This document shows positions 11,132-63,775 of a stretch of 64,000 bases of DNA, in pieces. Made by a program: the position numbers and the translations under genes. The notes below the pieces were generated by a model. That model did no database searches. It saw only the letters and a list, made by a program, of their open reading frames with translations, and was not told the origin of the DNA. Each line of letters begins with the position of its first letter. Position 1 is the stretch's first letter. This stretch comes from Octopus vulgaris. Its lineage: Eukaryota. Where the stretch lies: NCBI GenBank assembly GCA_951406725.2, contig OX597820.1, forward strand, positions 117,800,001-117,864,000, in the 5' to 3' direction.

Positions 11132-12042
11132 GTATCTGGAGCTAGTTTCAGCTGCTGTATCTCTTTCCTTGTTGGGTTTCTTCACTTGTCTGGGTTCCAG
11201 ACCTGTCTTCAGCAAGGAATAGCACACTGATCCTGATGGAAAGCCATGGAAGCTGACTTCTTCAAGGGGGGAAATGAGGCTGTGTGCCAGCCCTTGGCAA
11301 GGGCCTCGTTGATGAAGTCTTGATATTTTGATTTCTTTACCTGGAATATTAGAATGGTAAATGAAGAATAGCTTAAGTTTCAAATCTCTAGTGATATTAC
11401 TCCAAACAATAATGTGAAGTGAATGAGTATAGACATAGGTGTGTGGTTCAAAAACTTGCTTCCCACCTACTTGGTTCTGGGTTCAAACTCACCATGGAGC
11501 ACCTTGGCTAGGTGTCTTCTACTATAGACCTGGTTGACCAAAGTCTTGTGAGTGGATTTCCTAGATGGAAACTGAAAGAAGCCCATTTTATATGTGTGAG
11601 TTGCTGTCTCTTTGTCCTGACATTGAGAGACATTAAGCAAGTATCTCTGTCATAAAAGCATTATCCTTTTGTTTCTATTGCTCCATGAAAATACGTCCAG
11701 CCATGGGGGAAATAATACCTTATTTAGAAACGGGTGGGTTTGGTGATGAGAAGAGCATCCAGTCATAGAAAATCTACCTCAGATTCTATTTGTCTCAGGC
11801 AGGTGTGGAAAAGTAGATGTTAAAATGATTTTTTGCTGCTTTATATTAGGGACTGTTCTTTGTCACTTTGAGATGTTTTAAAGAGTAACCTCTTCTAAAA
11901 GAATCCATGTTTATGGTTAAAAATAAACTGTGGTGGATTTTTACATCTTTCTACGATATTGTCAAATTTGTTGGATTTTCCATTGTTGAATGGATGTTAC
12001 CATTTTGCTGGTTCTCCTTTTGTTTTCAATAGTTTTACCATC

Positions 12043-12398
12043 GAATGGTTGTATACTGTCAATCTAACACGAACGTGGAGCCCTAGGAAGCATCGACGCC
12101 TCCTGATGTCTTTGACACATTTTTCCTGTGTCCTTATATACATTTATGAAGGGGAGACAAACACCCCCAGCCGCCTGGGGCTGCATCTAGGGATACGTGT
12201 TTCAGGATGATTCAATGTATATAAGGACACAGGAAAAATGTGTCAAAGCCATCAGGAGGCGTTGATGCTTCCTAGGGCTAAACAGCGGTGGTGTACCTCC
12301 CTACTGTCACATTCGTGTTAGATTGACAGTATACAACCATTCTATCGCCCCACCACTGTACATGTATCTACGAGAGATTTAGAAATTTAGTATTTCTG
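12043..12398. mobile_element. Fold-back insertion (~100-bp inverted arms) with 12-bp TSD, Penelope-pLTR-like
   Basis: Arms 12043-12143 and 12215-12342; agttttaccatc duplicated at 12031-12042 and 12399-12410. Confidence 0.7.
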
Positions 12399-12518
12399 AG
12401 TTTTACCATCATTGCTAAAGTATTATAGTCTCTTGGATTTTGTCTTTTAGTCACTAAATCAGCCCAGCCTCCTACTGGGTTTGTTCAGTGAGGAGGGGGT
12501 GTTGGCACCAAGCAGGAT

Positions 12519-13010
12519 TCATCATCATCGTTTAACATCCGTTTCCCATGCTGGAATGGGTTGGACAGTTTGACTGGGGACTGGCAAGCCAGAAGGTTGC
12601 ACCAGGCCCCAATCTGATCTGGCAGTGTTTCTACAGCTGGATGCCCTTCCTAACACCAACCACTCTGAGAGTGTAGGGAGTGCTTTTTATGTGTCGCCAG
12701 CACAGGAGCCAGTTGGGGGAGGGGTGCTGGCATCTACCATGTTTAGATGGTACTTTTTACATGCCAACAGCACGGGATCCAGTCAGATGGCACTGGTATC
12801 GGCCACATTCGGATGGTGCTTTTTATGTGCTACTGGCACAGGAGCCAGTTGAAGAAGGTTGGGGCTGGCATGGGCTATGTTCGGATGGTGCTTTTTACAT
12901 GCCACCAGCATGGGATCCAGTCAGGCAGTCCTGGCATTGACCACGTTTGGATGGTACTTTTTACATGCTACCGGCACAGGACCCTGTGGTGGTGGGGCTG
13001 GCATTGACCA
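12519..13010 (-). mobile_element. RTE-LINE-related 3-prime region (family D) with ~60-bp tandem subrepeats
   Basis: (cat)n tail, gtttctacagctggatgcccttcctaac block, and repeated ggatggtgcttttta..tgccacc.gcac.gga.ccagt units. Confidence 0.75.
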
Positions 13011-13469
13011 AAAATACAAAATCTGTCAAGACACACTGGTACTCTTGTGGAAATGGATGCCACCAGGATTGCCAAGCTCACTGAATGGATGTTAGATCAA
13101 TATTTAATTTTCCTTCTATACTAGACTGGTTAGGTTTAAGAAAACTTAAGACCAAGTAGGACTGGAAATATTTGGTAAAAGTTTTTCTGGTTCTCCAGTG
13201 AAGAAAATACGAGGACGATTATACATTTTTCCATGCATCCATTTTCTCCACCCGATAATCTTGGGAGGGTTTGTCGTGGGTAGAGAGTCTTCAGACACCT
13301 CCTCAATAGGGTCCTATCAGAAACAGCTGCTTGACTCCCAAGCATGACCAACCTAGGCTGTAGGCACTAACCAACCATGTTGTTCTTGGACTGTTATATC
13401 TCCTGCCGATTGGCTTGGTTTGAAGAATTCATTTTGTGATCATAGTAACGGTGCTGTGAACTTTCAAAT

Positions 13470-13690
13470 CGGAGAAGCAATGGCTCAATCTGGAGAGACT
13501 CTCTGACCCTCTGGACTACACACCTTTTTGAGCAATGCTACTCCAGAGATCTTCTGGAAGAACCTCATTTTGGCTGCTTGTATTCCTGATTGTATTCTTG
13601 AGGTCATTACCCAACATTCAAAGCCATAGGTGAGAATGGGCACTAAGACCAAATTGAGGAATGCAAGTTTGGCCCTTTTTTGCCATCCTC
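13470..13690 (-). mobile_element. RTE-clade LINE ORF fragment
   Basis: LVPILTYGFECWVMT...IQAAKMRFFQKISGV is typical of the RTE post-RT region. Confidence 0.7.
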
Positions 13691-14071
13691 TCCACTTCTG
13701 AGGATTGAGTGTTGGAGCTTTATCAACTCCATGTAAACCAAACCTATTCACTTCTCCTCCTCCCACAACCCATCATATAAGCAAGGTTGTTTCTAGTCTT
13801 CTTCAAAATCATGTCTGGCTATGGGGATTTTATTACTTTGCTTGGAATCAGTAGGGGTTGATGACAAAAAGGGCATTCAGCCATAGAAAATCTGCCTCAA
13901 TGAATTCCGTTTGAGTCATGCAAGCGAAGAAGAATGAAGGTAAAAAGATATATATATATATACACACACATCAAACGTAGGGGAAATAGTGACAAGATTG
14001 TTAGAAACCCCTGTATTAGAATCAAATAATTTCACAGGTCTCAGATAATTTTACCAAAGGCAAGTATCCTT

Positions 14072-61100: not shown

Positions 61101-61225
61101 TGTATATATATATATATATATATATGTATATATATATATATATATATATATATATATATATATATATATATATATATATATATATATATATATATGCATG
61201 TATGTATGTATATGTATAAGTTATA
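58140..61225. repeat. Dense compound microsatellite field (TA, CA, GAT/GAC, TCTA, TATG, GA)
   Basis: Direct reading; a TCTA-unique-TATG-TA cassette occurs twice (59820-60145 and 60575-60795). Confidence 0.9.
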
Positions 61226-62137
61226 TATACCTGCATACATCGACAGTCGCCCACAAATACAAATATGCAATGTAATAATATAAAGAAATGAAAGATAAAA
61301 TTATAAAAATGATAAAATTATAAAAAAAAACAAAAACGGACCACCATTTTTACTAATGTGTTTTCTTGACCCCCAGATAGCCTTAGCCACCGAAGCAATG
61401 ATCAAAAAGCTGAAAATGTAAATAAAGAAAATAACTACAAAAATCAACAAAGCAAAATAAAAAAAAAACAAAAAAAAAAAACTATTATACAGCATCGCTT
61501 CGTATTTTGCTAATTTTCCTTCTTTCCAAAAACCCTTTCTGTTTATTTTGGTGTTTGTTCTGTTTTTATCTCAGCGACTGTTTGTCTTAGTCCTACGTTC
61601 TCCATTCACTCGCATCAACGGACGTACTGCGCTCTACCAGCTTGTTTGGTTTACTAGAAATAGCAGTTACATCTATCTCCCAAATTACATAGAAGACTTT
61701 TTTTTTTTTTTTTTAAAGAAAAGGGCGTATTGGTTAATGGCGGTTTTAGAAGTCTGAAAAAAAAAAGAAAAAAAAGAAAAAAAGAAAGAGAAAAAGAAAA
61801 ATATTGTTTGTGGCTTTGGTCATAGTGTTCCATGACCAGAGTTGGCCCTCGAGCCGAAACAATAATAAAAATGCTGACTGTGGTTTAATCACAATCGTTT
61901 CACGTCTGCTACAATAACATAAAGCTATATCCTTATGTGTGTATATTCTCACAGATGCATGCACATACACACATGTACATACACTGCCTAAATACCATTC
62001 TTGAGAAATTAGGCTTCTCAGAACCAGAAGGGAGAAAGGTAATTCGAAGACTACAGATCCAATCCATCACTGGAACTGTAAAATCTGTAAAACTTTCCAG
62101 AGGTTTATCATTTAAATATATATGAGCATGTATTTTT

Positions 62138-62520
62138 GGAAGCACTCCGTCGGTTACGACGACGAGGGTTCCGGTTGATCCGATCAACGGAACAGCCTGC
62201 TCGTGAAATTAACGTGTTAGTGGCTGAGCACTCCACAGACACGTGCACCCTTAACGTAGTTCTCGGGGATATTCAGCGTGACACAGAGAGTGACAAGGCC
62301 GGCCCTTTGAAATACAGGTACAACAGAAACAGGAAGTAAGAGTGAGAGAAAGTTGTGGTGAAAGAGTACAGCAGGGATCACCACCATCCCCTGCCGGAGC
62401 CTCGTGGAGCTTTAGATGTTTTCCCTCAATAAACACTCACAACGCCCGGTCTGGGAATCGAAACCGCGATCCTATGACCGCGAGTCCGCTGCCCTAACCA
62501 CTGGGCCATTGCGCCTCCAC
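62138..62520 (-). mobile_element. SINE family A (young, full length)
   Basis: Near-identical to 19297-19670. Confidence 0.88.
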
Positions 62521-62604
62521 ATGTCTAGATATGCAACTCTATGCATGAGAAAACATACATAAAACAAAACATAAAAATCTGCATACATACATGCATACAT
62601 GCAT

Positions 62605-63370
62605 CAAGAACCTGATTTGAAACGACTCCAACCAACTGTGAAACATGGCGGTATCTTTGTAATGGTATGAGGAGCTGTCACCAGCAATGGTCGTTCTGAG
62701 CTGATCGAATGTGTTGGAACCATAAACTCTGAAAAATACATTGAAATACTTAAGCAAGGACTACTTCCGATGTATTCACACGATAACATAACGAAGCATT
62801 GGGACTCCCTTCATCGAAAACCGGTGATTGTCGTACGCCGACGACAGGTCAATACCTAGAAACTGCAGTCCGTGCGTATCACTTAGGTTGACGAGGGAGG
62901 GATGACCTCCCTTTGCAAATACCATAAGGGCACAGAAAGTGTGCCTAAAGCCAGCTGGAGACGATGTTCTCCTGAGGCTACAAGCTACAGTAACACCCAC
63001 CCTTACTGGTTAGCCATATCGAGATGGCTAGTATACCTCACATTGAAAAAGGAGTTGTTATTCATGAAAGATGGGGCTCCATGCCACACAGCGAAAAGGA
63101 ATCAACAATGGCTAATTGGAAATGGGATCAAAAAGCTTCCTTGACCAAGCCAATCTCCTGACATCAACTCAATTGAAAATCTTTGGAGCATAATAGATAG
63201 AGCTATACGAAAAATTCGACAGAAACCTAAATCTTAAGATGAATTGTTTCGATTGTTGCGTGAAAAGTGGGCAAAATTCCACGAGAGATAATAAGAAAGC
63301 TCATCAGTTCAACACCAAAAAGAGTTTCTGAATTAAAAACTACAAAGGGAATGTCAACTAAATACTAAAC
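62605..63370 (+). mobile_element. Tc1-like transposase fragment with ~260-bp insertion
   Basis: PTVKHGG, GTINSEKYIEIL, FMKDGAPCH and PSQSPDINSIENLW; insert ~62781-63040 shares sequence with the Helitron-like repeat at 8603-8660. Confidence 0.8.
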
Positions 63371-63521
63371 TATGTAGTCCTACCTATCGATTACATTTCA
63401 ATTGTTCACTTTGCGTATTAAATAAAAGATTTTTAAAATTAAAGGTGTCTGTTTATTTCCTATATGTCTGTATATATATATATATATATATATATATATA
63501 TATATATATATATATATATCT

Positions 63522-63775
63522 AACAATAATTGAGGAACGACCACAATAGGCCGTTCGACCCACTAGAAAGAGCAGCCAGGGCTCCAACCGCAAATAGTAG
63601 TAAATTCCGAAATTTAAGGAAAGATAAAAAAACATTTACCCTGTTCATCTTTAGACAATGCATTGTTTCGGCGTTTTTGAACGGCAACGCCTGATTAAAT
63701 TAAATTAACCCAATAAATTCTTGCTCTTTCTAGTGGGTCGAAATAAAGCATATTGGTCGTTCCTCAATTATTGTT
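63522..63775. mobile_element. Fold-back element (~52-bp arms) enclosing a hammerhead 3-prime half
   Basis: Arms 63522-63573 / 63723-63775; minus strand ggcgtt..aacgcc-GAAA-caatgcattg-TC. Confidence 0.7.

Follow-up and report, generated by a model that had tools for sequence, protein, structure and literature searches.

The 64,000-nucleotide stretch of the Octopus vulgaris genome analyzed here (GenBank assembly GCA_951406725.2, contig OX597820.1, positions 117,800,001 to 117,864,000 of the forward strand; hereafter the window) contains six short fold-back insertions, labeled E1 to E6 from left to right, which belong to six separate multi-copy families of truncated or non-autonomous units of the Penelope-like element (PLE) or retrozyme type. 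These stubs are short, mostly decayed copies of abundant families, and we consider it probable that a Penelope-type enzyme put each of them in place, making a staggered cut and priming one complementary DNA (cDNA) per strand. What is observed directly is that the copies belong to families, that E3, E4 and E5 are linked to coding elements and E1, E2 and E6 to tandem units, that each family has two fixed 3' ends with one arm at each, and that there are target-site duplications (TSDs) and, in part of the E4 insertions, arms of unlike subfamily type. The window sits in a 2.8-Gb genome of 227 contigs, rich in microsatellites and in repeats resembling short interspersed elements (SINEs).

The six inverted-repeat insertions described in an earlier, sequence-only reading of the window were all recovered by self-BLAST (E values from 2e-9 to 1e-114), with inverted repeats at 12040-12345, 15072-15410, 22421-22728, 27183-27438, 43369-43589 and 63522-63775, and no significant DNA similarity was found between their families, which agrees with the unrelated primary sequences then reported. 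The sizes of 220-370 bp given at that time had to be extended for the tailed elements, as family copies show that E2, E5 and E6 reach 50-100 nt beyond the earlier limits, through their tails (15072-15511, 43369-43643 and 63520-63862). Genome searches returned 547-2663 candidates per element, figures that are not copy numbers, and the best 40 copies per family, 85-97% identical, were scored. Each family has two fixed 3' ends, site 1 and site 2, lying 35 to 105 nt apart. Among 112 distinct head-to-head insertions, 94 pair an arm ending at site 1 with an arm ending at site 2, two are site 2/site 2, one is site 1/site 1 and in the other 15 one of the arms stops at some different point; one arm per site is thus seen in 94 of the 97 classifiable insertions, in six unrelated families. 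With an E4 junction query that contained neither end, 36 of 39 insertions were site 1/site 2 (73 of 82 for E4 as a whole). At L248:2600-8100, two PLE copies bearing open reading frames (ORFs) and their own hammerhead lie head to head and end at two sites 70 nt apart, and this coding insertion obeys the one-arm-per-site rule too.

TSDs outside microsatellites are mostly 9-15 nt long, and those proposed for three of the elements were found, measuring 12, 14 and 13 bp next to the elements at 12.0, 22.4 and 27.2 kb, respectively; matches of at least 12 occurred in 8 of 233 random flank pairs. Single-armed copies account for 16 of 41. The junctions cluster at a fixed 5' point in E4 and at the near-palindromic start of the head in E3, and in both families the two arms often end at or near one fixed 5' point. 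Neither a splice junction nor a cap-derived G could be identified behind the fixed E4 5' end, as no matching upstream exon was found and the same G occurs in one long copy. Upstream of the E4 hammerhead in L042 and L168-L176, a branch-point-like word, a pyrimidine run and a CAG coincide exactly with the usual start of short copies, a candidate splice acceptor or transcription start. All six elements consist of an inverted, 5'-truncated copy with a one-sided tail and a TSD or microsatellite target, and their overall layout, with an inverted and a direct arm, a tail on one side and either a 12-14-bp TSD or a TA target, is the insertion footprint that has been published for PLEs.

The proposal that these are non-autonomous or truncated PLE- or retrozyme-like units from several families was borne out by family copies, profiles and parents, all six families carrying dimer-type minimal hammerheads. 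The accompanying question, whether they match the end-repeats of coding PLEs or exist as independent units, has a different answer by family: E3, E4 and E5 are ends of coding PLEs, and E1, E2 and E6 are ORF-less. Upstream of E4, a microsatellite-rich 3' region leads into an ORF with reverse transcriptase (RT) and GIY-YIG motifs (L238, L240 and L249), for which Pfam returned GIY-YIG (E value 1.4e-4, 22.5 bits against a cut-off of 22.6) and a weak RVT_1 match (E value 0.052). An upstream block is common to 14 of 50 E5 loci, three of which extend to an ORF that shares 41-44% identity with the E4 parent (tblastn), and the E3 parent ORF matches a PLE protein (BLASTP, E value 2e-7). A C-x3/4-C-x2-C linker is present in the E4 and E5 parents and not in the E3 parent; the parents of all three families are known here from fragments, not from full-length copies. 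Sequence upstream of E5 in L107 was rejected as belonging to the family, being private to that locus (three candidates), and a 73-nt E5 query against the genome returned nothing.

The E3 end-repeat opens with a tRNA-like head. This head was retained in 21 of 30 loci of family copies, and among 25 loci retrieved with an ORF-end query, 24 carry it about 30 nt past the stop codon and 17 carry both head and hammerhead. Compared with 30 tRNA genes of the genome, 7 of 9 heads outscored all 100 shuffles, with tRNA-Arg as the best match in 6 of 9; ARAGORN and Rfam did not call a tRNA in the head. The position of the head behind the coding element's stop codon led us to reject E3 as a separate tRNA-derived SINE, and E3 is the end-repeat of a coding PLE.

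In the ORF-less families, tail-into-head tandem copies were found with periods of 361 bp in 2 of 20 E1 loci, 506-596 bp (about 546 bp) in 3 of 20 E2 loci and 486-489 bp in 3 of 20 E6 loci, and the longest ATG-initiated frames measured 69, 17 and 19 amino acids, respectively. Each observed array is shorter than two full units and holds one hammerhead per unit. The E1 unit is covered by assembled contigs from three sequencing runs presumed to be RNA and one of unknown type, in which ends, strand and circles are unreadable. Two apparent links of E1 to coding elements, in L133 and L136, were rejected as nested insertions, E1 being present in 0 of 19 relatives of the L136 element. Members of the families lie nested in, or adjoining, the 3' regions of other PLE-type insertions in L133, L136, L113 and L071, at TA runs.

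The two arms of an insertion were compared at sites that distinguish subfamilies. E4 has loop II types that differ by an indel plus substitutions. Both arms could be typed in 62 of 82 insertions, leaving 20 untyped, and 13 of these 62 have arms of different type, at an overall arm divergence of 3%. After exclusion of the pairs that only a like-with-like junction query had found, 12 of 29 are discordant and the arm types are unassociated (Fisher p 0.47). In E3, with an overall arm divergence of 8%, 8 of 11 insertions have arms that are unlike at a single non-CpG site, a count in which the query fixed one allele on one arm. In tandem families, the arms agree in 5 of 5 E6 insertions (three linked sites) and in 4 of 4 E1 insertions (one site); E6 sites directly beside the arm end were disregarded, as they probably reflect edge effects of the alignment. 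The E3 and E4 counts, set beside those of E1 and E6, suggest that coding families act differently from tandem families. Unlike arms cannot arise from a self-primed hairpin unless by later conversion, and can arise from two RNAs or from two unlike repeats of one RNA.

Column profiles built from 13, 25, 43, 103, 25 and 23 copies of E1 to E6, respectively, have the type-I minimal hammerhead layout in all six families (core, 3-8 pair, GAAA, UH, stems and palindromic stem III). The stem III palindromes are ACACGTGT, ACCGGT, AACGTT, AATATT, AATT and ACAATGCATTGT for E1 to E6, and the 3-8 pair is C-G in E1, E2, E3 and E6, G-C in E4 and U-A in E5. The families are highly uniform; variation in E4 falls in loop II and outside the hammerhead motif. 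G occupies position 12 in 84% of 25 E2 copies, and the E6 family stem II is about 75 nt long, its 5' part being cut off in the window copy. Predicted dimers pair through the palindrome in E1, E2, E5 and E6, that of E1 forming a complete double hammerhead, and the lowest-energy predicted dimers of E3 and E4 pair elsewhere.

On the reading that we prefer, an endonuclease would cut the two target strands 9-15 nt apart, one reverse transcription would begin at RNA site 1 and the other at site 2 (compare the start sites mapped in vitro for an anole element), both would copy toward the RNA 5' end, and the two cDNA ends would be joined head to head via short complementarity and then repaired, so as to leave two arms, a one-sided tail and a TSD. 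Different template copies, whether two RNAs or unlike repeats of one transcript, would often supply the two cDNAs in coding families; in tandem families, a single multimeric or circular RNA would mostly supply both. The hammerhead is predicted to be active, as a dimer or with the element's protein, in the source transcript only; in the stubs, it would be a passenger buried in the arm-arm hairpin. We also put forward, as a tentative though plausible elaboration, that PLE integration is carried out by an asymmetric enzyme dimer holding two RNAs, with one start site each per cut strand and the cDNAs joined head to head. The palindromic stem III could then pair the templates, mismatched arms would be the genomic record of this event, and the route would also carry retrozymes and the tRNA-promoter repeat as cargo.

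Several points weigh against the preferred reading. For each query, the insertions counted come from its 40 best-scoring copies, and one of the two ends was part of most queries. In the passages available from the anole study (PMC11167929), no difference in start site was seen between the strands, which by itself leaves the one-arm-per-site pattern without explanation. Discordance at diagnostic sites amounts to 13/35 in E3, 46/212 in E4 and 17/66 in E5, against 0.51, 0.40 and 0.46 in shuffled pairs; the arms are thus more alike than shuffled pairs and the templates not fully independent, with query choice and subfamily age also pushing arm likeness upward in these three families. The same-template result for tandem families comprises nine pairs, and the arms of E2 are mixed (7/22). 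The E3 parent ORF had no Pfam match, and the 20 loci of each of E1, E2 and E6 yielded no coding parent. The E1 core carries U4C, its stem II is closed by an A-U pair (10.1-11.1), and the E5 stem I is only 3 bp long; for these reasons, both may be poor cleavers.

A plausible, though less probable, alternative is that both priming events always use one RNA, a transcript that contains the start sites twice (end-repeats, multimer or circle), unlike arms being copies of unlike repeats. This alternative agrees with double priming by a Penelope-type enzyme in everything except the number of RNA molecules. It would account for the partial correlation between arms, it fits the agreement of tandem-family arms in 9 of 9 pairs at the examined sites, and passages of PMC11167929 describe PLEs as transcribed from partial tandems. 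The 5' stop often shared, exactly or nearly, by both arms in E3 and E4, however, fits two RNA 5' ends better than one 5' end and an internal copy, and arm types were unassociated in the 29 E4 pairs described above.

Self-priming, in which a single cDNA or antisense template folds back at a terminal palindrome and copies itself, arm differences arising by later mutation or gene conversion, has been hypothesized for rotifer PLEs in passages of PMC3846280. The E3 and E4 junctions do fall on short palindromes, the two arms are of one type in 49 of the 62 typed E4 insertions, and the likeness of arms exceeds that of shuffled pairs. We nevertheless find this explanation unlikely, as a self-copy should equal its template, yet 13 of 62 E4 insertions are unlike in loop type at an overall arm divergence of 3%, and as it leaves the pattern of one arm per site in 94 of 97 insertions without reason.

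The sequence-only reading was right about the origin of these insertions and wrong in taking them for a functional system. It had proposed a dense ribozyme and hairpin system, which in a stronger, functional sense would have the inserts cleave or fold host transcripts to the host's benefit. A strict hammerhead descriptor matched four sites in the window, two each in E3 and E4 (100 shuffles gave a mean of 0.1 and a maximum of one site), and when one mismatch was allowed, as had been advised for a relaxed-core search, the 15.1-kb site appeared together with three unrelated sites. Hammerheads were absent from the best 150 of 263 Rfam matches to the window, where microsatellite and hairpin noise was seen, and the output of general repeat finders was dominated by microsatellites. 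The hammerhead layout, or half of it, is indeed present in the five elements originally counted, with that at 12.0 kb as a sixth. The 43.5-kb motif is a hammerhead sequence whose position was corrected to 43466-43501 on the minus strand, a GAAA-containing hairpin at 43383-43410 having no matching 5' core; that at 63.5 kb retains the 3' half, the short local stem II attributed to it being peculiar to this copy. The one intact copy, at 27248-27298, with stems I and II in its predicted fold, and the prediction of all six elements as long stable hairpins, which could attract enzymes binding double-stranded RNA, are what a functional role could build on. All other copies are mutated or halved, the changes being largely CpG decay. 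The paired motifs of an insertion face opposite ways, one per strand, and a transcript therefore holds a single sense copy. Read-through RNA of each element is predicted as one long hairpin (-99 to -210 kcal/mol), which would bury the cores.

Nor is the window exceptional in density. Chance hits in unrelated flanks numbered 1 to 7 per family, 20 insertions in total, over 0.57-0.72 Mb per family, a rough estimate with 251 of 422 loci left after overlaps were removed; the six families together thus occur about twice per 64 kb of unrelated flank, and copy numbers in the thousands to tens of thousands are suggested for each family. A system useful to the host is, on these grounds, very improbable. 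Miniature inverted-repeat transposable elements, or fold-back DNA transposons with terminal inverted repeats, can practically be dismissed in spite of the short elements, inverted repeats and TSDs, since the copies have neither fixed terminal inverted repeats throughout nor a fixed short TSD (16 of 41 are one-armed, arm 5' length varies, tails are one-sided and TSDs vary from 9 to 15 nt) and three families continue into RT/GIY-YIG ORFs.

Table 1 Positions of the six insertions, their hammerhead motifs and the PLE relics in the window.
Feature	Position	Strand	Description
E1	12031-12410		Head-to-head insertion, ORF-less 361-bp tandem-unit family
E1 TSD	12031-12042 and 12399-12410		12 bp
E1 arms	Inverted 12043-12212 (site 1), direct 12214-12398 (site 2)		Tail ~52 nt
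E1 hammerhead 3' half	12187-12207	-	Family core C3 C4 G A C G8 A, palindrome ACACGTGT; 5' half truncated away
E2	15072-15511		ORF-less ~546-bp tandem-unit family, flanked by (TG)n and (TA)n, without discrete TSD
E2 arms	Inverted 15072-15129 (site 1), direct 15127-15511 (site 2)		Tail ~100 nt
E2 hammerhead	15175-15251	+	Full layout, palindrome ACCGGT; G12 changed to A here
E3	22379-22736		End-repeat of coding PLE, 5'-truncated; tRNA-like head of the family lost here
E3 TSD	22379-22392 and 22723-22736		14 bp
E3 arms	Tailed inverted 22393-22562, (AAT)n, direct 22588-22722
E3 left hammerhead	22470-22515	-	Core and stems I/II intact; palindrome AACGTT with one C-to-T
E3 right hammerhead	22634-22679	+	Core and palindrome intact; stem II with two changes
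E4	27174-27523		3' end of coding RT + GIY-YIG PLE
E4 TSD	27174-27186 and 27511-27523		13 bp
E4 arms	Inverted 27187-27299, direct tailed to 27510		Tail ~55-65 nt
E4 left hammerhead	27248-27298	-	Sole intact copy in the window; G3-C8 core, palindrome AATATT
E4 right hammerhead	27321-27368	+	Stem II with 3-nt deletion
E5	43369-43643		3' end of another coding PLE family, TA-rich surroundings
E5 arms	Minus-strand 43369-43515 (site 1), direct with internal deletion to 43643 (site 2)
E5 hammerhead	43466-43501	-	Decayed; family core U3-A8, palindrome AATT, 3-bp stem I
E6	63520-63862		ORF-less 486-bp tandem-unit family, inserted into (TA)n
E6 arms	Minus-strand 63520-63720 (site 1), direct 63722-63862 (site 2)		Tail ~85 nt
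E6 hammerhead 3' half	63649-63673	-	12-nt palindrome ACAATGCATTGT; core 5' half and most of long stem II gone
PLE RT relic	35478-36488	+	79% DNA identity to young coding family with own end-repeat
PLE relic, further lineage	46546-46842	-	36% to ORF in L248

The PLE relics noted earlier at 35.5 and 46.5 kb (Table 1) are real, but as parents of E1 to E6 they were ruled out, being of different families whose relatives carry different end-repeats. The young family to which the 35.5-kb relic is 79% identical has open frames of 1000-1200 amino acids that match RT and GIY-YIG, and a hammerhead repeat of its own; no link of the 46.5-kb relic to any of the six families was found, and Pfam returned no match for the PLE relics of the window. 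Directly after the 35.5-kb relic, at 36814-37313, lies an inverted repeat (about 120 bp, 85%) whose middle is rich in pyrimidines. A very young and abundant coding PLE family, with many equal-scoring copies and open frames of 1000-1200 amino acids, was seen in L161-L166 (e.g., G000:C7:35723000-35731500); its direct end-repeats measure 0.6-1.3 kb, L166 contains a tandem, and the hammerhead core has U at position 6.

Elsewhere in the window, inverted pairs at 47500-48570, 52539-53263 and 56454-57523 match abundant SINE-like repeats and not the hammerhead families. Fragments of Tc1/mariner-type transposases lie at 34711-35172, 38227-38634 and 49700-50460, the first two matching Pfam Transposase_1 and DDE_3. 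An open frame at 5502-6143 (+) encodes a methyltransferase domain (Pfam Methyltransf_11, E value 6e-10) and is apparently a first exon; the six elements may be intronic to, or downstream of, this frame.

The genome probably holds tens of thousands of such ends, and the six stubs are ordinary as objects. Their value is as a test set for the question of how PLEs build inverted insertions: the published hypothesis is self-priming, and the in vitro work, in the passages available, describes two starts and extension on both strands and leaves the assembly of the product unstated. One arm per start site in six unrelated families, together with unlike arms, favors double priming, and the number of templates becomes testable. 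That ORF-less units bear this footprint as well suggests that animal retrozymes are moved by PLE enzymes. For cleavage assays, ready substrates exist in the natural G3-C8, U3-A8 and U4C cores. New relative to the literature consulted are the quantified one-arm-per-site rule and the subfamily-mismatched arms of E4. Our literature search, outside which most subscription papers and supplements lay, found neither a two-template PLE insertion nor a tRNA-headed PLE repeat described, and returned nothing on cephalopod retrozymes. Passages of PMC13282606 report 31 recently active Penelope-like families in an octopus and do not mention ribozymes; passages of PMC8490949, PMC10886601 and PMC6765202 were also consulted.

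The closest known systems are the insertions left by endonuclease-bearing (EN+) PLEs and their pseudo-long terminal repeats. Available passages describe an inverted copy plus tail, TSDs, mobilization in trans and the self-priming hypothesis (PMC8557442, PMC3846280) and, for the anole element in vitro, cutting and extension of both strands from two start sites bounding the tail (PMC11167929). The octopus insertions share with those in these three sources an inverted 5'-truncated copy beside a direct copy, a one-sided tail, a TSD of 8-15 bp or a (TA)n target, a hammerhead in the repeat, and RT followed by GIY-YIG in the E3, E4 and E5 parents (in fragments, and for E3 by BLASTP only). They differ in that tails are 35-105 nt long, against 30-40 nt in the papers, and in that one arm sits at each site in 94 of 97 insertions, the papers describing the tail as optional or usually one-sided; the tRNA-like head about 30 nt past the stop codon in E3 is a further difference, and arms of unlike subfamilies go unmentioned in the passages available.

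As to the ribozymes, passages on metazoan PLE repeats (PMC4209133, Cervera and de la Pena 2014) report minimal hammerheads in opposite-strand pairs 100-700 bp apart, a U3-A8 variant and weak cleavage as dimers, and those of PMC11167929 report a predicted dimer, as well as a PLE hammerhead that is assisted by protein and is dispensable for insertion. The octopus motifs resemble the minimal type-I forms (PMC4209133; Lunse et al. 2017 via PMC6765202) in the short stem I, the extra base after A9, the palindromic stem III, the U3-A8 variant and the spacing of opposite-strand pairs, and differ in that E4 is a natural G3-C8 family, that E1 is a U4C family and that stem II of E6 is 75 nt long. G3-C8, natural in E4, is an engineered and partly active double mutant in PMC11167929.

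Animal non-long-terminal-repeat retrozymes, for which passages of PMC7229834 and bioRxiv 10.64898/2026.07.22.740005 propose a PLE origin from phylogeny, resemble E1, E2 and E6 in being dispersed, ORF-less tandem units of 31-45% GC with one type-I hammerhead each. E2 and E6, however, exceed the 150-450 bp of retrozymes, and the PLE two-end insertion footprint found here is undescribed in the searched passages. Finally, the SINE-like SM-alpha elements of schistosomes, as described in passages of PMC6765202, share with E3 a promoter of the RNA polymerase III type followed by a hammerhead; in E3, by contrast, the head is internal to a coding PLE's end-repeat and short copies insert head to head, whereas SM-alpha elements are described as tandem repeats.

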